A stretch of 12,909 bases of DNA from a virus. Its lineage: Duplodnaviria > Heunggongvirae > Uroviricota > Caudoviricetes. Location of the stretch: IMG/VR virus record IMGVR_UViG_2579779007_000005; one strand, 5' to 3'. Positions 6,130 to 12,684 of this stretch are shown piece after piece (the stretch's first letter is position 1; the number at the start of each line of letters is the position of its first letter). Below the pieces are notes generated by a model. That model did no database searches, was not told where the DNA came from, and worked only from the letters and a program-made list of their open reading frames with translations. The translations under genes were made by a program, and so were the position numbers.

Positions 6130-7275
6130 TTACTCACCAGCCTGAATTTCCAGAATCTTGATGGCGTTCGAATCCACCACACCACCGCCCAGATATTTCT
6201 GGGTATAGATGTTAATGAATCCGGGTTCGCTGAAGTCCGGACGGGTACGCGTACCGGTTTCATGGTCAACGATGAAATAACCGCGCTTAAAGTCACCTAC
6301 TGCAATCACACCGTCCGGAATAAATTCCAGATATTCAACCGGAAGCCCCAGCAGAGAATCAGGATCACCAGCCTGTAAACGATCGCGCCAGATGTAATCA
6401 CCAGTGGCATTTTTCAGTTTTTGTGCGGAGGCGGCTGTATTTGAGTTCATCACCCATACAGCTTTTTTGCGGTACTTATTGCGCAGCGTAAATTTCAGGT
6501 CAATCAGCATGTCGGCGCTGAGACTGCCAGTAACTTTTTTCGTCTGGAGCGTACCGAAAGGACGGGTTTTGTCGTTATCCGCAGTGCGCGGGAACGCCAG
6601 GAAACCTTTAGCTTTTTTCTCGCCATCACCGGAAACCAGATCCGTTTCTTCGGTATCAACGAAAGTGTCGCCAATTTCAGAAGATAACCAGCTCATAATA
6701 TCGACTTCGGAAAAATCGATAATTTCCTGAGTGGTTTTCGGGTAAGCGTAGATCGGATACAGGCGGATGCTGACTTCGTTCAGTTTCGGCGTTGCCGTCT
6801 GGTTACGTGCCGCACCTTCCTCGCCATGCTCAACCACCGCGCCACCAGCGGAAACCAGTTGCTTAAATTCATTGCTGTGAATGGTTTTAACAGTACAGAT
6901 TTTACGCATCACCGATTCATCAGAAAGCTGACGCATAATTTCTCTGTTCAGTTCCGGGATAACCGTATAACCACCATCAGCCGGGACACTGCCGGACAGG
7001 TTGCGGGTTTCCCCGGTCAGAATGTAAGAGCGCAGTTCGTCTTTGGTGATTTTCTCTTCGACGGAAACACCTGGCTGGTTACGTTCTTCATCCGCAACAG
7101 CTTCAAGACGGGAGATTTCTGTGTCGAGGGAATCGGCTTTTGCACGCAGTTCATCAAACTGTTTGCCCTCGTCATCGTTCAGGCTGCGGTTTTCACTGTC
7201 GGCTTTTTCCAGCAGGGAGCGCATCTGGTTTTTCAGGGCGTTTTTTTGCTGGCGGAGTTCGATTAATTTCTTCAT
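6130..7275 (-). CDS. HK97-fold major capsid protein with an N-terminal coiled-coil delta (scaffold) domain; 381 aa
   Basis: The N-terminus MKKLIELRQQKNALKNQMRSLLEKA...ISRLEAVADEERN is a typical helical delta domain, followed by an HK97-like body. ATG at 7275 is chosen over the in-frame TTG 7362 and ATG 7350 on homology-type grounds; the start is uncertain. Stop TAA 6132-6130. Confidence 0.85.
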   Translation of the reverse strand: MKKLIELRQQKNALKNQMRSLLEKADSENRSLNDDEGKQFDELRAKADSLDTEISRLEAVADEERNQPGVSVEEKITKDELRSYILTGETRNLSGSVPADGGYTVIPELNREIMRQLSDESVMRKICTVKTIHSNEFKQLVSAGGAVVEHGEEGAARNQTATPKLNEVSIRLYPIYAYPKTTQEIIDFSEVDIMSWLSSEIGDTFVDTEETDLVSGDGEKKAKGFLAFPRTADNDKTRPFGTLQTKKVTGSLSADMLIDLKFTLRNKYRKKAVWVMNSNTAASAQKLKNATGDYIWRDRLQAGDPDSLLGLPVEYLEFIPDGVIAVGDFKRGYFIVDHETGTRTRPDFSEPGFINIYTQKYLGGGVVDSNAIKILEIQAGE

Positions 7276-7465
7276 GAAGGTTTTCTCGTATTGGTTAAGA
7301 TTCAGGACGTGAAACCAACACGGAGGGAGCGCGCCCGACACTCCCGGCATCTCGCAGATCAACCCAGCATCGCGCAGGGGTCAGGCGGCATTGTGGCGGC
7401 TCACGTCTGAGTGCCACGCTCCAACATATACATAAAAATCAGTATGTAAACACCTGTCAGTCAGA

Positions 7466-7493
7466 CCGAACAACCACGAAAGAACACGAACAA
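7466..7493. promoter_or_regulatory. Three 10-bp-phased direct repeats (CCGAACAA / CACGAAAG / CACGAACAA) between the divergent capsid and cargo promoters
   Basis: CGAACAA at 7467-7473, CGAAAGA at 7477-7483 and CGAACAA at 7487-7493, spaced one helical turn apart. The same ACGAACAA motif recurs in tandem at 201-218. Confidence 0.35.
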
Positions 7494-7497
7494 ATAA

Positions 7498-7528
7498 TTT
7501 ACAAAAGAAGTAAACCATGGCCTATTAT
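7498..7528 (+). promoter_or_regulatory. Candidate sigma70 promoter of the 168-aa cargo gene
   Basis: -35 TTTACA (7498-7503), 19-bp spacer, -10 TATTAT (7523-7528). The spacer is long, so this is tentative. Confidence 0.3.
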
Positions 7529-7559
7529 TGCTGTCTCTGACTACAACAAAGGACGCATC

Positions 7560-8066
7560 ATGAATTTAAGCGCAATGGCATACCCTGATACTTTCATAAT
7601 TAATGGCGAATCATTCAGAGGTAAAAGAAACGCAAAAGAAAACAAGGTATTAATTCCATATACAAATGAACCGGAAGTAACTATTGGTCAACACATTATC
7701 CAGCGTGTCGGTAAAAACGAGATAAATCTAAAAATTATAGATATGAAGTTGCTTCCCAATGGAACCCTCAGACAGGGAACCAACCATCCAAATATGTTGA
7801 CTCTCTATATTGAAAATATCACGGGAAATGAACATATGACGCCAACTAAAAGTAATACATTTAACATTGGTTCAATTAGTGGTGATCAAGTGCAGATAGG
7901 TGAGCATAACCATATGCTGGTAAACATCAGCATCACTGAACTGGTTGAAAAAGTCGCTAAATCGGGGGATGTACAAGCCAAATCAGTATTAAAGCAGTTA
8001 CTGGAAAACAGTACCGTTGCCAGCATTGTTGGGGCTGGCGCAAGTGCCCTAATAGGCTTACTGTAA
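7560..8066 (+). CDS. AT-rich cargo gene of unknown function (168 aa) with a C-terminal hydrophobic Gly/Ala-rich tail; candidate accessory or defence-type effector
   Basis: ATG 7560 with AAGGA SD at a 6-nt spacer. It is the only substantial plus-strand gene in the island and is visibly more AT-rich than its neighbours. The C-terminus STVASIVGAGASALIGLL looks like a glycine-zipper membrane segment. It is bounded by its own promoter region and a terminator. Confidence 0.7.
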   Translation: MNLSAMAYPDTFIINGESFRGKRNAKENKVLIPYTNEPEVTIGQHIIQRVGKNEINLKIIDMKLLPNGTLRQGTNHPNMLTLYIENITGNEHMTPTKSNTFNIGSISGDQVQIGEHNHMLVNISITELVEKVAKSGDVQAKSVLKQLLENSTVASIVGAGASALIGLL

Positions 8067-8072
8067 AAAAAT

Positions 8073-8093
8073 GGCCTGGATTTTACCAGGCCT
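8073..8093. terminator. Bidirectional rho-independent terminator between the convergent 82-aa gene and the 168-aa cargo gene
   Basis: Stem GGCCTGG (8073-8079), loop ATTTTAC, stem CCAGGCC (8087-8093), flanked by AAAAAAA upstream and TTTATTATTTT downstream on the plus strand. Confidence 0.55.
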
Positions 8094-8101
8094 TTATTAT
8101 T

Positions 8102-8350
8102 TTACCGTTTCACGGGATCGCGCATTCTGCGCCTTATTTTCCACAGATATTCGATCATTGCTTCCACCTGCTCACGGTTGGTTGCGAAAATTTCCCCGGT
8201 CAGTGAGCTACGCAGAAAATCATGATGATCCACAAAAAACAACGCATCGGAAGAAAGCAGACGGCGATATTTTTTTGCTGTCATGGTTTCCAGATCATCA
8301 AAATCATGAAACTTTTTATGTTGCTGGACTTCTTCAAATGTCACTGGCAT
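8102..8350 (-). CDS. Hypothetical protein (82 aa)
   Basis: ATG 8350-8348 preceded by a G-rich SD (minus strand CAGGGGGGGG); stop at 8102, followed by a hairpin terminator at 8073-8093. Confidence 0.5.
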   Translation of the reverse strand: MPVTFEEVQQHKKFHDFDDLETMTAKKYRRLLSSDALFFVDHHDFLRSSLTGEIFATNREQVEAMIEYLWKIRRRMRDPVKR

Positions 8351-8367
8351 GCCCCCCCCTGTTGTCG

Positions 8368-8793
8368 CTAAAACGGTATGTTGTCCCCGTACGGATCATC
8401 GTGCTGACCCGTCTGCTGTTTTGCCCTGTTCAGTGCGTCAGTCGCCTGGTTCTGCTGGCCTTTTTTGCCGCCTGGTCGCACCGTTCGCGCACTGATTACG
8501 CTGTCTGCGATAACCTGCCAGCCTTGCCGAGTTTCGCCGTTCTGGCCTGTCCACTGACTTACCTGCATGTTACCCGCCACGCTCACCAGTTCGCCTTTGT
8601 GGTGTTTTGCCAGTGCTTCGGCCTGTCTGCCAAACGCCAGAACAGAAAGCCACATCGTCACCGCACCATCATCAGCCTGACTGCATGGCAGGGGTACTGC
8701 CATACTTACCATCGCCATTTGTGTACCCTTGCTGGTGGTCTTTAACTGCGGGTCATTTGCCAGCCGCCCGTAAGCGGCTATCTGTGCTGTCAT
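8368..8793 (-). CDS. ssb: Single-stranded DNA-binding protein (SSB)-like, 141 aa
   Basis: ATG 8793-8791 with GGAGGG SD. OB-fold-like N-terminal segment (IAAYGRLANDPQL...WLSVLAFGRQAEALAKHHKGELVSVAGNMQVSQWTGQNGETRQGWQVIAD), a Gly/Gln-rich linker, and a C-terminal ...DDPYGDNIPF resembling the SSB acidic DDDIPF tip. Confidence 0.65.
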   Translation of the reverse strand: MTAQIAAYGRLANDPQLKTTSKGTQMAMVSMAVPLPCSQADDGAVTMWLSVLAFGRQAEALAKHHKGELVSVAGNMQVSQWTGQNGETRQGWQVIADSVISARTVRPGGKKGQQNQATDALNRAKQQTGQHDDPYGDNIPF

Positions 8794-9035
8794 GATTCCA
8801 TCCCTCCGGTGTTAACGTTGATGGTTGTCACCTGTTCCGCTTCGGCAATCTCCCGCTCTGTCAACGTGGCAAAATTTGCCGCCGCCGTGGTCATTAATGC
8901 GCTTATCAGTTCGGGATGTGCTTTCGCGTATCCTTCCCCGGCGTTGCGGTCGATGATTTTTATCGACACCCTTAACCAGTGTTCCGTCAAATCAAGAGCG
9001 TGCGATTGTGATTTTTTTGTGTGCTTCGCTGTCAT
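8790..9035 (-). CDS. Hypothetical protein (81 aa)
   Basis: ATG 9035-9033; its stop overlaps the SSB-like ATG (8793) in an ATGA arrangement, implying translational coupling. Confidence 0.5.
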   Translation of the reverse strand: MTAKHTKKSQSHALDLTEHWLRVSIKIIDRNAGEGYAKAHPELISALMTTAAANFATLTEREIAEAEQVTTINVNTGGMES

Positions 9036-9080
9036 AGGCTTTATCTCACAGCAGTAAATTAAAATTTTTGCGTTTTAACC

Positions 9081-9310
9081 CTTCACCTGTTCACCTTTTG
9101 ATATTTTCTCTTTTAATTCATAATGTTAATTGGTGAACAGTTTCACAAAAACTATTCACCAACTGTTCACCACTGTTCACCCTTGAAGCTCAATAAACAA
9201 TCAAAAAGGTGAACAGTGAATAGTTTGGTGAACAGTTCATAAATAACTGTTCACCCTATAATATACTGATATAAAAGATATTTATGACAGGGTGAACAGT
9301 GGTGAACAGT
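9081..9310. repeat. Iteron array, candidate origin of replication
   Basis: Nine perfect copies of the 9-mer GGTGAACAG or its complement CTGTTCACC: plus-strand CTGTTCACC at 9087, 9163, 9173 and 9247; GGTGAACAG at 9132, 9208, 9227, 9291 and 9301. Degenerate copies at 9081, 9152 and 9217. AT-rich spacers (for example 9256-9290) separate them. The array sits directly downstream of the primase/helicase stop. Confidence 0.6.
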
Positions 9311-9322
9311 TATTCCATAAGT

Positions 9323-11140
9323 TTAATTTTTGCTATCGTCATTAGTGACCGATACACATGATGGCATCCAGTCTTCTGATTCCTCCGTCAGTGTCACGTT
9401 TGAACGCAAACCGTGCTTCGTTTTCCGTTTCATATACTCCCTGCCATATTCCGCCATTGCCCCCGGCATATCTTTACCGAAGCGCGTCAGTGTTACAGGT
9501 TTACCAAACCCATGTGCCCTCATATAAGCCAGATAGGCATGATAGAGATACCTGCGTGGGCTGAATGGCACAATTTCAGCATTACCCACTAACAGGCCAT
9601 CACACATTACCGACGCCATGAGATAGCCGCAGAAGTCCACCAGCGAATCCCCCTCTCGCTTTATCGCCAGTGCTTCTTCAGATTTCTGCTGCTCATATAA
9701 CAGGCGTCTGGCTTCGTCCTGGTTAGCAAACCGTGTAAGCAGATGGCGAATCACTACCGCCAGCTCACCTTCTATTTTTTCCGCCAGCATTGGATCACGT
9801 TCGTTCTCCGGTACAACTTCCGAAAAATTGAATATCACCCGACGACGTGAGATCCCCCCGCTGCGGTCACTGAATGACATGGCGTTATTGTTAACCGCCA
9901 GCACTACTGCCGGAATACGCGTTGAGTAGGGGGCTTTGTGTTTCGGGTCAATTGCCACCTTGTCACCGCCTGTAATAGCCTTAATCCCTGCCCCATCACC
10001 AGCGTAGCGGGTCATATCCGGCATGATAATCAGCGAAAAGCCAACCACTAACGCGCGTTCCCTTGCATCTTCCAGCGCCTTCATGCTTGCCGATACTGTG
10101 TTGGCCTTACCCGCCAGCATGGTGCAAATCTCCGCCATCACGCTTTTACCACTTCCCCCTGGACCTGTTACCTCAATGAATAACTGCCAGTCGTACCGGT
10201 TCGCCAGCACCATGAATAATGCAGCCAGTACGCGATCCGCCTTGCGGTCATTCTCAGCCACCGAACGGCGTAACCACTTCCAGAAATTCGGCGCATGTGT
10301 TGCCAGCGTTTCCCCCTCTGCTGGTGGGCTGAAAGGTAATTCACTGGCAATTAACAACCAGTCGTTTTTGTTATGCTCCCGAAAATTACCTGTTCTGGTA
10401 TCAAATACCCCGTTACTGAATCCAATCAGGTTACGGGCTGTATTCCCCATTACAGGCAAACTTAACTTCATGGTATCGACCGCCGATTTAATGGCGTTCT
10501 GCGAATAGCTGATCTCCGCATCAATGAAAATCTGTGCCATAGCTCGCTGTAATTCTTTATCCTGTACTGGCTCCCATACAACGCCGTTGTAATGGTGAAC
10601 AGTGTCAGAGTCAGCATGAATCGCCAGTTCACCGCCATAATGTGCCAGGAGAACTTCGCCGCGTTGACTTGCTCCCATCTGGTTAAGCGCCAGTGATGAA
10701 GCGTTATCGTCTTTTACCCGCTCTTTTTTCTTTACAGGCAGTTCAACTACCTTTTTCTTTTCCGCCTGCTCTGCCCGTTCACGTTCCAGATATTCGCGCC
10801 AGTTCTCCCGTTTCTGGCTGTGCATTCCTTCAGGGTAATAATCAGCATCCCTGACACCTGCCACTGCCAGTTTCTGCCCGATGGTATTAACAAGCCCCGG
10901 ACGCAATAACCCCGCCTGATAGAGACGCACGCGATAGCGTCCGTCCGGTACGATTTGCAGGTTGTCCAGTTCGGCAAGTTGTTGCTCTCCAAGCCAGACA
11001 GGTGGCACGTTATCGCCAGCCAGTCGCCCGTCCTGTTCCTGCCACTGTTTCGCATGTGCCCACGCATCACTACCCGCAAAAATGATGACTTCCGTCATTT
11101 TGTCACGCGGCTGGTGTTTTAAATTTGGCGCTTTTTTCAT
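9323..11140 (-). CDS. P4-family primase/helicase-type replication protein (D5-like NTPase C-terminal domain); 605 aa
   Basis: Walker A GPGGSGKS and a Walker B-like LVVGFSLIIMPD are typical of the phage/plasmid primase P4-family C-terminal domain. The ATG at 11140 has a GGAGAG SD and ATGA coupling to the upstream gene, and is preferred over the GTG at 11155 listed in the ORF track. An iteron array lies immediately 3' of the gene. Confidence 0.85.
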   Translation of the reverse strand: MKKAPNLKHQPRDKMTEVIIFAGSDAWAHAKQWQEQDGRLAGDNVPPVWLGEQQLAELDNLQIVPDGRYRVRLYQAGLLRPGLVNTIGQKLAVAGVRDADYYPEGMHSQKRENWREYLERERAEQAEKKKVVELPVKKKERVKDDNASSLALNQMGASQRGEVLLAHYGGELAIHADSDTVHHYNGVVWEPVQDKELQRAMAQIFIDAEISYSQNAIKSAVDTMKLSLPVMGNTARNLIGFSNGVFDTRTGNFREHNKNDWLLIASELPFSPPAEGETLATHAPNFWKWLRRSVAENDRKADRVLAALFMVLANRYDWQLFIEVTGPGGSGKSVMAEICTMLAGKANTVSASMKALEDARERALVVGFSLIIMPDMTRYAGDGAGIKAITGGDKVAIDPKHKAPYSTRIPAVVLAVNNNAMSFSDRSGGISRRRVIFNFSEVVPENERDPMLAEKIEGELAVVIRHLLTRFANQDEARRLLYEQQKSEEALAIKREGDSLVDFCGYLMASVMCDGLLVGNAEIVPFSPRRYLYHAYLAYMRAHGFGKPVTLTRFGKDMPGAMAEYGREYMKRKTKHGLRSNVTLTEESEDWMPSCVSVTNDDSKN

Positions 11141-11436
11141 TTCTGCTCTCTCCACGCGGCAATCATGTTTTTCAGTTCCTGTAGTTTTTTATCAACATCC
11201 ATACATGACACATGGTTATTTCTGGAAAGCGGGATTTCCCGCCTGAATCTGCTAATAAAGATCTCCACGTTCAGCGAACTATGAAATGAATAGCCATCAC
11301 GAATAAAATACACACGGTCAAACATCAGTTCTTTTACCGTTACTCTGTTACCGTTCTTATCCAGATAAATAGCGCCGGGGATAATTTTGGGGTGTGCATA
11401 ACCGCTGGCAGTCAAGCCAGATAAATATGTTCTCAT
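11137..11436 (-). CDS. Hypothetical protein (99 aa)
   Basis: ATG 11436-11434 lies 6 bp after the upstream stop, with a GGGGA SD-like sequence. Its TGA (11139-11137) overlaps the primase ATG (11140-11138) in an ATGA arrangement. Confidence 0.55.
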   Translation of the reverse strand: MRTYLSGLTASGYAHPKIIPGAIYLDKNGNRVTVKELMFDRVYFIRDGYSFHSSLNVEIFISRFRREIPLSRNNHVSCMDVDKKLQELKNMIAAWREQK

Positions 11437-11442
11437 GATTAT

Positions 11443-11763
11443 TTATCCCCGATTTGAATCAGTATTCGCTTTCTTTATGGCATTTAATGCATCTGTGGCA
11501 TTTTCAATGGTGCACCGTAACGAAATATCAAACTGCCCAAGCATTGCCAGTAACAAACCGATATTACCCATATCAATGCGCATAGCCTTTTCGTCATAGT
11601 CCTCATTTTCTGACGCATGCCACATCAGGCTACCAATTGACGCAATACCCATTGATATATTGTCAGTAGCCCCATCCGCAGCGGAATAAACCTTTTTAGC
11701 AATATCATGCTCACAGTTAAAATGCGGATTAATCAGGTACTGGTAATTTGACATATCAGGCAT
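11443..11763 (-). CDS. Hypothetical protein (106 aa)
   Basis: ATG at 11763 overlaps the stop of the upstream 67-aa gene (translational coupling); stop TAA 11445-11443. No recognisable motif. Confidence 0.55.
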   Translation of the reverse strand: MPDMSNYQYLINPHFNCEHDIAKKVYSAADGATDNISMGIASIGSLMWHASENEDYDEKAMRIDMGNIGLLLAMLGQFDISLRCTIENATDALNAIKKANTDSNRG

Positions 11764-11959
11764 GGCACACCCCCTGACGAATACGGGCGGCGAATACCAT
11801 CACGCAGCCAGCCGGGGATTGCTGGCGTGCTTCCTGTTCGCTGGTGGCCACGATGTGAATCACGCGCGGTTGTGCGGTGCTCAGGGCGATAAAACGCCAG
11901 ATGTATTTATTCAGGTCGTGCGAGTCCCGCCCTTGCGGGTGTGTGGTATGATTTCTCAT
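11756..11959 (-). CDS. Hypothetical small protein (67 aa), first gene of the minus-strand early operon; faintly reminiscent of Icd-like small proteins found near primases in P4-like islands (unverified)
   Basis: ATG 11959-11957 preceded by GAGGT SD; stop TGA 11758-11756 overlaps the ATG of the next gene at 11763. This is the only credible part of the 306-aa track ORF 11756..12676. Confidence 0.45.
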   Translation of the reverse strand: MRNHTTHPQGRDSHDLNKYIWRFIALSTAQPRVIHIVATSEQEARQQSPAGCVMVFAARIRQGVCHA

Positions 11960-12055
11960 AGCTACCTCGATACGCTTTCTATCGTTGGTGGTTAGAAGCC
12001 CGGTTAGTGTTAGCGCACTGCCGGGTTTCGTCGTTTCTGCACCTTGCATCAACAA

Positions 12056-12108
12056 GGTGTTAAACACCAATTTAAGCCTAGGTGTTAAACACGTCAAGTG
12101 TTGAACAC
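12056..12108. promoter_or_regulatory. Three near-palindromic operator sites (GTGTT-N-AACAC) in the divergent intergenic region
   Basis: GTGTTAAACAC at 12057-12067, GTGTTAAACAC at 12082-12092 and GTGTTGAACAC at 12098-12108. The third overlaps the candidate -35 of the RHH promoter. Confidence 0.5.
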
Positions 12109-12129
12109 TTATTTTTTTTCCTGCATACT
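12101..12129 (+). promoter_or_regulatory. Candidate sigma70 promoter of the RHH gene
   Basis: -35 TTGAAC (12101-12106), 17-bp spacer, -10 CATACT (12124-12129); lies about 30 bp upstream of the ATG at 12159. Confidence 0.3.
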
Positions 12130-12158
12130 GCATTTGTTTTTTGTAAGGGGTACACAAC

Positions 12159-12338
12159 ATGGCGACAAAAGCAGTAAACGCAAAATCACAAACAGTTGCG
12201 GCAAGGGTTCCGCATGAAGTTATGAACAATGTTGAGGCGGTAAAAATGCCTGGTGAAAGTACAGGGCAGTTTGTAACAGCAGCATTAAAGCGAGAAGTTG
12301 AATACCGCCAGCGTCGCAAGGCCAAAGAGCAGGAGTAA
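12159..12338 (+). CDS. Small ribbon-helix-helix (Arc/CopG/MetJ-type) DNA-binding protein, putative repressor; 59 aa, below the ORF-track cutoff
   Basis: ATG at 12159 is preceded by SD AAGGGG (8-nt spacer) and an in-frame TAA at 12144-12146; stop TAA 12336-12338. The sequence TVAARVPHEVMNNVEAVKMPGESTGQFVTAALKREVEY fits the RHH pattern (beta-strand with R-V-P, helix A, G-x-S/T turn, helix B). Three palindromic operators lie directly upstream. Confidence 0.5.
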   Translation: MATKAVNAKSQTVAARVPHEVMNNVEAVKMPGESTGQFVTAALKREVEYRQRRKAKEQE

Positions 12339-12395
12339 CCATCACCAGCGCCGTGGTGCGGTGAACTGTGGCGCACAGGGTTACAGGTATCTACG

Positions 12396-12575
12396 ATGAC
12401 TGACAAATCATTAAAGAAATTATCCTCATCCAAGAAAAAACAACGCAAAAATGCGGTAAACGAACATGAACCGGAGAGATTCGCACCATGTGCGTTTATC
12501 CTTGAGAAGTACCTTAAAGAGTATTCTAGGAAAATACGCTCATTGCAGGCATGGCAGCGAATCGAGCCAGACTGA
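12396..12575 (+). CDS. Hypothetical small basic protein (59 aa), possibly co-transcribed with the RHH gene
   Basis: ATG at 12396 with only a weak AGG SD; stop TGA 12573-12575. It lies between the RHH gene and a plus-strand terminator at 12640-12667. Lys/Ser-rich N-terminus; no recognisable domain. Confidence 0.25.
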   Translation: MTDKSLKKLSSSKKKQRKNAVNEHEPERFAPCAFILEKYLKEYSRKIRSLQAWQRIEPD

Positions 12576-12639
12576 TAGCATTGCCCACCAGCCAACAACC
12601 TGGTATTCTGGATATGCTCAAGTTTAGTGTTATGCCACT

Positions 12640-12667
12640 GGCGACCGCCCTTGGTCGCCTTTGTTTT
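12640..12667 (+). terminator. Rho-independent terminator for the plus-strand RHH transcript
   Basis: Stem GGCGACC (12640-12646), loop GCCCTT, stem GGTCGCC (12653-12659), followed by TTTGTTTT. The minus strand has no T-run after the same hairpin, so it is probably unidirectional. Confidence 0.5.
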
Positions 12668-12684
12668 ATGTGTCATAGCCCCCC

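Follow-up and report, generated by a model that had tools for sequence, protein, structure and literature searches.

The 12,909-bp window analysed in this study (IMG/VR virus record IMGVR_UViG_2579779007_000005) is an Escherichia coli capsid-forming phage-inducible chromosomal island (cf-PICI). Just 3' of its replication gene rep lies a dense array of iterons with the 9-mer GGTGAACAG. With a probability of roughly 85%, this array is the replication origin of the satellite or, at minimum, a cis-acting replication site bound by the product of rep (Rep). An iteron origin 3' of the primase/helicase gene had been proposed in an original prediction, and it is now supported through homology and comparison by three independent lines. 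First, the array carries the 'ori type 1 repeat' of satellite phage P4, and its gene-proximal half is colinear with the P4 origin ori1 including the spacer. Second, the adjacent Rep carries an origin-binding winged helix of the P4 alpha type. Third, the array aligns with the origin of the island EcCICFT073 and has the same architecture. That origin directly follows, on the 3' side, the gene of a Pri-Rep with 48% identity to Rep, and plasmid maintenance by it has been demonstrated.

The motif scan found nine perfect copies of GGTGAACAG inside 9087-9309, five on the plus strand and four on the minus strand. One copy with a single mismatch and two copies with two mismatches (CCCTTCACC and AGTGAATAG) complete the array. 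The count is exactly nine plus three, as was predicted with nine perfect and about three degenerate 9-mers in both orientations. Sites with at most one mismatch number 15 in the window, against 2.8 ± 1.6 (maximum 7) in 200 dinucleotide-preserving shuffles. By our own arithmetic, the expectation for 12.9 kb is about 0.1 perfect copies. The true unit is the 10-mer GGTGAACAGT, with T at the tenth base in eight of the nine perfect copies. The spacing is 10 bp within the doublets 9163/9173 and 9291/9301, near the helical repeat as anticipated, and 11 bp at 9152/9163. The AT-rich stretches noted among the repeats are also real: the GC content is 22-28% in 9100-9139 and 9240-9299 versus 45-57% in the array flanks. 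The array was placed 3' of the helicase gene, and it indeed occupies the 287-bp gap from the stop codon of the minus-strand gene 9323-11155 (rep) to the start of the open reading frame (ORF) 8790-9035, only 13 nt from the rep stop codon. The ends needed a small correction. The array was given as 9081-9310, but its real span is 9079-9309, and positions 9079-9080 of a degenerate copy had been clipped.

The left half of the array aligned with the reverse complement of its right half with a score of 59 (null 17 ± 2.5). One module is thus present twice in the array, in inverted orientation (Table 1). The module plan is an iteron doublet, an AT-rich spacer of about 35 bp, one iteron in the opposite orientation, and then two or three more iterons. 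In gene orientation, the proximal module starts with the doublet 9301-9309 and 9291-9299, which is followed by the AT-rich spacer and the inverted iteron 9247-9255. Next come 9227-9235, the degenerate copy 9215-9223, and 9208-9216. The distal module is ordered as the doublet 9079-9087 (degenerate) and 9087-9095, the AT-rich spacer 9096-9131, the plus-strand iteron 9132-9140, and the remaining copies 9152-9160 (one mismatch), 9163-9171, and 9173-9181. Across the 12.9 kb, duplex stability is lowest in the 30-bp segment 9256-9285, with –27.0 kcal/mol against a mean of –40.9 ± 3.6. The segment 9101-9130 in the distal spacer ranks as the fourth least stable 30-mer. The spacer 9256-9290 is most likely the DNA unwinding element where the first melting would take place. 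No DnaA boxes were detected in the array.

The single strand of the array folds more strongly than shuffled sequences (z = –7.5), and an Rfam scan gave weak matches to hairpin models. Both observations would fit a structured RNA or hairpin element instead of protein-binding DNA. Such an element is nevertheless hardly conceivable. The strong fold is a trivial consequence of the inverted iterons, and the sub-threshold Rfam matches are all to eukaryotic microRNA-precursor models (35 bits vs a gathering threshold of 249). Moreover, the conservation in relatives tracks the 9-mer units and not the base-paired partners.

The relation to P4 is seen at the level of the binding site. The 8-mer TGTTCACC, the reverse complement of GGTGAACA, is annotated as 'ori type 1 repeat' in the P4 record NC_001609, both in the origin and in crr, the 'cis required region for replication'. 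The P4 ori copies also read GGTGAACAG and contain the identical 10-bp doublet GGTGAACAGTGGTGAACAG. Multiple type I iterons TGTTCACC near helical spacing are a trait of the P4 replicon and are present here. The proximal module is colinear with P4 9309-9413 (ori1) with the spacer bases included, and the score is 64 (null 16 ± 2.4). The AT-rich spacer between the iterons is at the same position in both, and P4 ori1 shares the entire module plan. The minimal ori1 is reportedly 123 bp long with six iterons and a 35-bp AT-rich region, and is said to be independent of DnaA and DnaG. The distal module aligned with P4 crrA and crrB with scores of 52-53 (null 16 ± 2.6). This alignment covers the non-iteron sequence TTTTCTCTTTTAATT-CA, and the match to the 120-bp crr unit is best in the doublet-plus-spacer part. 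As a sub-hypothesis, the distal module may have the function of P4 crr, moved beside ori1.

The window also differs from P4 in several respects. A distance of 4.5 kb separates ori1 and crr in P4, whereas the two modules of the window are adjacent within 230 bp and form one cluster. P4 crr is composed of two direct 120-bp repeats, while the modules of the window are inverted. No homologue of Cnr (DUF5375) was found upstream of the initiator in the window. The length and neighbourhood of a 106-aa ORF upstream of rep made it a candidate for a Cnr equivalent. It was rejected for lack of similarity to P4 ORF106, and the DUF4222 ORF does not resemble P4 ORF106 either. The element does not carry the P4 genes sid, delta, and psu, and builds its own capsid. 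A P4 alpha-like locus of Erwinia rhapontici was observed to have no iterons within 700 bp 3' of its gene. Its GGTGAACA clusters (52-144 and 6508-6610) are located upstream at about 3 kb and downstream at about 2 kb, which is the split arrangement of ori and crr as in P4 and not the fused one of PICIs.

The array position 3' of the initiator gene is that of P4 crr. As an alternative, the array could be a crr-like auxiliary or copy-control site only, to which Rep binds for looping, handcuffing, or titration, with replication starting elsewhere as in P4. This synteny and the best alignment of the distal module, which is the P4 crr unit, speak for such a role. In plasmids, iteron clusters outside minimal origins often serve copy control. 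However, the array is the only iteron cluster of the window, and also of the complete 99%-identical island. In addition, P4 ori1 and the validated EcCICFT073 origin both align colinearly with the proximal module, which contains the least stable duplex of the window. A purely auxiliary site is therefore improbable. A split role, with the proximal module as the origin and the distal module as the crr equivalent, is compatible with the array being an origin.

The winged helix of P4 alpha binds the origin repeats, and unwinding and priming follow; its primase is of the bacterial (Toprim) type and N-terminal (PMC4234260, PMC2777425). Rep of the window is composed, in order, of an N-terminal Toprim-like domain, D5_N, a superfamily 3 (SF3) helicase, and a C-terminal winged helix. 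Its residues 150-600 share 50% identity with residues 320-771 of P4 alpha, the helicase and origin-binding part. Residues 502-598 match PDB 1KA8, the crystal structure of the origin-binding winged-helix domain of P4 alpha. Therefore, the pairing of an alpha-type SF3 helicase with a C-terminal winged-helix origin-binding domain is common to the two proteins. A test of binding by the primase N-terminal domain had been proposed. This needs correction, as the predicted reader of the iterons is the C-terminal winged helix.

The N-terminal parts differ. P4 alpha has a 320-aa DnaG-type primase domain, whereas Rep has a Toprim-like domain of 145 aa instead. No similarity of Rep to residues 1-320 of P4 alpha was found, and Pfam and NCBIfam detected no primase domain in Rep. 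When its N-terminal domain was compared with the P4 primase domain by hhalign, no match emerged either (probability 0.3%). The name 'primase' for Rep is doubtful because the P4-type primase domain is lacking. This also corrects the 'primase/helicase' designation in the original prediction. Rep may have lost primase activity, with a small Toprim-like remnant left, and may rely on priming by the host or the helper. Since the P4-type domain is absent, primer synthesis may require host DnaG or a helper function.

Origins of Gram-negative PICIs are located directly 3' of the initiator gene and always have an AT-rich region between two sets of iterons (Fillol-Salom et al. 2018, PMC6092414). The same organisation was described for the origins of staphylococcal pathogenicity islands and PICIs (PMC6092414). 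In the window, the array is immediately 3' of rep, and the iteron/AT-rich plan is present twice, with the spacers 9096-9131 and 9256-9290 at 22-28% GC. EcCICFT073's pri-rep-ori segment maintained a thermosensitive plasmid, and the loss of rep or ori abolished the maintenance (PMC6092414). The EcCICFT073 Pri-Rep is 48% identical to the window Rep over 596 aa, which is the full length with the N-terminal domain included. Within the 288 bp after the rep stop of EcCICFT073, there are about twelve GGTAGA(C/T)AG sites whose order and orientation match those of the window array. The three-way DNA alignment of the window array, the EcCICFT073 ori, and P4 ori1 is colinear. The full-length homology of Rep and the colinear sites indicate, therefore, that the window array is an allelic variant of the validated EcCICFT073 origin. 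EcCICFT073 also has the orfX-ssb block downstream and a DUF4222 gene before rep. Its iteron GGTAGA(C/T)AG differs from GGTGAACAG of the window, and its wing sequence is also different. EcCICFT073 is a classical PICI hijacking helper capsids, whereas the window is a capsid-forming PICI. Of the two alleles, the experimental test was carried out with that of EcCICFT073 only.

The repeats could alternatively be operators only, bound by Rep or by a different protein, either for rep autoregulation or for gating read-through into orf81-ssb, with no role in replication. The array does lie between co-directional genes, and iteron-binding initiators commonly autoregulate. On the other hand, no sigma-70-like promoters and no intrinsic terminators were found on either strand of 8700-9600, where 1.7 and 0.6 are expected. 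An operator would also need far fewer than twelve sites, and the sites here bracket AT-rich spacers and are colinear with two experimentally defined origins. An operator-only function is thus very improbable, and a secondary regulatory effect of the array is possible.

The Sakai Sp7 island, which is EcCIEDL933 according to the supplement of PMC6092414 and the prototype cf-PICI, belongs to the same element type as the window and has its ori in the same place. Both share the gene order rep, ori, orfX, ssb, capsid, protease, portal, HNH, terS, and terL. The N-terminal 143 aa of the Sakai Sp7 Rep (710 aa in total) are 69% identical to the window Rep. Beyond residue 143, it has an unrelated DUF927 helicase and a different C-terminal helix-turn-helix (HTH). 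About ten ATAACCCGCA iterons in both orientations are located 3' of its rep (7234-7603 of the extracted locus). Sakai Sp7 is therefore a different rep-ori cassette behind the same N-terminal domain. This cassette is at odds with the cf-PICI preprint (bioRxiv 10.1101/2022.09.08.507074), in which the EcCIEDL933 rep is stated to be identical to the EcCICFT073 rep.

Relatives were collected from a scan of one genome per species, which gave 72 loci. The architecture 3' of the stop codon is kept across about 30 relatives, while the repeated word differs by lineage. The variants are GGTGAACAG, GGTAGACAG, GCGGACAGT, GGTAGAGAG, GGTGCACAG, GGTGTACAG, and GATGTATAG. The form GGTGAACA(G/C) occurs in E. 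coli, Klebsiella, Citrobacter, Raoultella, Pluralibacter, Rahnella, and P4-like elements, and GGTAGACAG in E. ruysiae, Kluyvera georgiana, and Enterobacter. Serratia has G(C/T)GGACAGT, Symbiopectobacterium has GGTAGAGAG, and Proteus has GGTGCACAG. Both GGTGTACAG and G(A/G)TGTATAG are found in Xenorhabdus and Photorhabdus. In ten diverged relatives with the GGTGAACA core, 71% of the iteron columns are invariant versus 26% of the remaining intergenic columns.

When the C-terminal domains were aligned, it was the wing (YxKRKTKHG-LRSN in the window) that varied with the iteron. The GGTAGACAG and GCGGACAGT groups share a 5-residue insertion in the wing. Between the window and the E. ruysiae locus, the helicase is 97% identical and helices 1-3 of the winged helix are 84-87% identical, whereas the wing, KRAKCTKGPDKGRVITN in this type, falls to 32% and the iteron changes from GGTGAACAG to GGTAGACAG. 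In relatives keeping GGTGAACA, the wing is 75-80% identical at a helicase identity of 92%. Two different wings accompany almost the same iteron GGTAGACAG, namely the insertion type GPDKGR (E. ruysiae, Kluyvera, and Enterobacter) and the short RKVKGVTQTN (EcCICFT073). This suggests independent routes to one specificity.

An inverted iteron pair was also observed within rep, at 10594-10602 (plus strand) and 10625-10633 (minus strand). One copy is perfect, the other has one mismatch, and they are 31 bp apart. The pair covers approximately codons 174-187 and is kept in close E. coli copies. It was examined as an 'ori2-like' site of the P4 type and rejected, as it is missing at that position in all diverged relatives. 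The pair is probably there by chance because of this absence, and it could be a weak autoregulatory site.

Several points weigh against the assignment of the array as the origin. For the window allele, binding, melting, and replication would follow from homology and comparison. The syntenic site of P4, just 3' of alpha, is crr, a cis-required auxiliary, and ori1 is 4.5 kb away. Therefore, the position alone is no proof of initiation at the array. Rep has no recognisable active primase domain, and so the P4 mechanism is not transferable wholesale. The co-variation was counted on related sequences, and these counts are not independent events because the relatives share ancestry. Lastly, the wing is not the sole specificity determinant because the E. 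ruysiae-like and the EcCICFT073-like wings accompany nearly the same iteron.

If the array is the origin, a plausible course of initiation can be outlined. Rep monomers would dock on the twelve GGTGAACAG(T) sites via their C-terminal winged helices. The phasing of 10-11 bp would place the bound domains on one helical face, which would favour cooperative loading of SF3 helicase rings. The bracketed AT-rich spacers of about 35 bp would then melt, with 9256-9290 as the best first candidate. The inverted modules would suit two oppositely oriented hexamers and hence bidirectional replication. Viral origins served by SF3 helicases, such as those of papillomavirus E1 and SV40 large T, have inverted initiator sites beside AT-rich DNA, and the likeness is one of mechanism by analogy. 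The single-stranded DNA-binding protein (SSB) of the island, encoded two genes downstream, would coat and stabilise the opened strands. Because neither promoter nor terminator was found, transcription of the upstream operon would pass through the origin.

Table 1. Coordinates of the iteron array, its parts, and the adjacent genes in the window.
Feature	Position	Strand	Basis or remark
Whole array, putative replication origin; 12 GGTGAACAG(T) copies (9 perfect) in two inverted modules	9079..9309		Repeat scan
Gene-proximal module	9208..9309	-	Alignment with P4 ori1 and EcCICFT073 ori
Proximal AT-rich spacer, 35 bp	9256..9290		GC about 22-28%, stability
Central spacer between inverted modules, approximate dyad centre near 9195	9182..9207		Poorly conserved in relatives
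Gene-distal module, inverted relative to proximal	9079..9181	-	Repeat scan, P4 crr alignment
Perfect GGTGAACAG, start positions	9132, 9208, 9227, 9291, 9301	+	Motif scan
Perfect GGTGAACAG, start positions	9087, 9163, 9173, 9247	-	Motif scan
Iteron with one mismatch	9152..9160	-	Motif scan
Iteron with two mismatches, CCCTTCACC	9079..9087	-	Sequence reading
Iteron with two mismatches, AGTGAATAG	9215..9223	+	Sequence reading
Rep ('Pri-Rep', annotated 'DNA primase family protein'), 610 aa	9323..11155	-	Pfam D5_N, DUF5906, Pox_D5
Winged-helix origin-binding domain, codons 502-598, predicted iteron reader	9362..9652	-	PDB 1KA8, E=1.8e-24
Rep N-terminal domain, codons 6-145, Toprim-like fold without zinc finger	10721..11140	-	Common to several PICI Rep alleles
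81-aa ORF directly downstream of the array	8790..9035	-	phrog_1231; part of conserved rep-ori-orfX-ssb block
Island-encoded SSB	8368..8793	-	Pfam SSB, E=1.4e-16

The window is 99-100% identical to E. coli chromosomal islands. A complete 99%-identical island of strain B1W1 (NZ_CP117720) sits between clpS and cspD. Its order is integrase, HTH regulator, Icd-like gene, DUF4222, 'DNA primase family protein', and the array. Beyond the array come a hypothetical gene, SSB, HK97 capsid, prohead protease, portal, connector, HNH, TerS, TerL, and DUF3892, and no tail genes were found in this island. The window ends before int, and int and the HTH regulator are seen in the NZ_CP117720 island. This island agrees with the PICI context of int, an alpA-type regulator, and a unidirectional operon at a chromosomal attachment site (att). 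The element codes for an HK97 capsid of its own together with protease, portal, connector, HNH, TerS, and TerL, and it lacks tail genes. This agrees with the definition and architecture of cf-PICIs, which are islands of about 13-15 kb (bioRxiv 10.1101/2022.09.08.507074). The rep-array cassette occurs also in classical PICIs carrying PerC/ProQ. Among 5,426 complete E. coli genomes, at least 671 carry the 401-bp array region. A median of two 'places' per genome was considered as a sign of co-resident P4-type origins. The value was not used, since a quasi-palindromic query matching both strands is the simpler explanation.

An element with its own TerS, TerL, and HNH must have a packaging site somewhere. 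The array as this cos/pac site, or as a recombination site, is highly implausible all the same. The linear record of vB_KppS-Ant, a related induced particle, begins 22 nt before terS and has the array in its interior (11721-11949). In addition, the repeats match the initiator-binding motif, and the att sites are at the island ends beside int.

The neighbouring genes show several further features. A gene at the orfX position is also present in the comparison locus L001, Sakai Sp7, EcCICFT073, and EcCIIHE3034. Upstream of rep are the ORFs for DUF4222 and the 106-aa protein. Two ORFs on the opposite strand, 7560-8066 (plus strand, 168 aa) and 8071-8745 (plus strand, 224 aa), lie in the AT-rich gap between ssb and capsid. 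Neither matched Pfam, NCBIfam, or PADLOC, and the 168-aa ORF corresponds to phrog_5789. The 224-aa ORF is absent from the 99%-identical B1W1 island, where a small minus-strand gene stands instead. The gap looks like a variable accessory (cargo) slot. The minus-strand ORF 11756-12676 codes for 306 aa and has matches only in its last 90 residues or so (Icd-like cell-division inhibitor or phrog 'transcriptional repressor'). The annotated Icd-like gene of related islands has only 67 aa. The N-terminal extension may be an ORF-calling artefact or a copy-specific fusion.

Satellite Pri-Rep and P4 alpha have been described as only distantly related or as analogues (PMC6092414, PMC10085698), and one suggestion is that the primase-replicases of different satellite families are analogous and not homologous (PMC10085698). 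It is already known that PICI origins with iterons are located 3' of rep, and the binding site and the domain are classical P4 biology. A statement that the common PICI/cf-PICI rep-ori equals the P4 replicon except for the primase domain was not found in the papers covered. The window allele may already be drawn in Fig. 2a of PMC6092414, which lists iteron sequences. A full-text literature search for TGTTCACC returned primer noise only.

The basic picture is unchanged, as the array is most probably a replication origin of a known type. Nevertheless, a concrete predicted function and a binding domain can now be given to a non-coding block present in at least 671 of the 5,426 complete E. coli genomes. 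The common PICI/cf-PICI replication cassette is homologous to the P4 replicon down to the binding site. A further proposal is tentative and somewhat unlikely. It holds that the GGTGAACAGT specificity is shared between P4-like elements and the PICI lineage with cross-fire or competition between co-resident satellites, that wings and iterons are swapped together, and that Rep separately lost its primase. If it is true, P4 alpha could activate or titrate the window origin, the window Rep could act on P4 ori1 and crr, and P4 Cnr might inhibit the window Rep. New specificities in this family would then arise through a joint exchange of iterons and wing. The relatives offer a natural series of iteron and wing variants for studying how the specificity of SF3-helicase initiators changes. 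Replication cross-talk or incompatibility between satellite families thus becomes a testable possibility.
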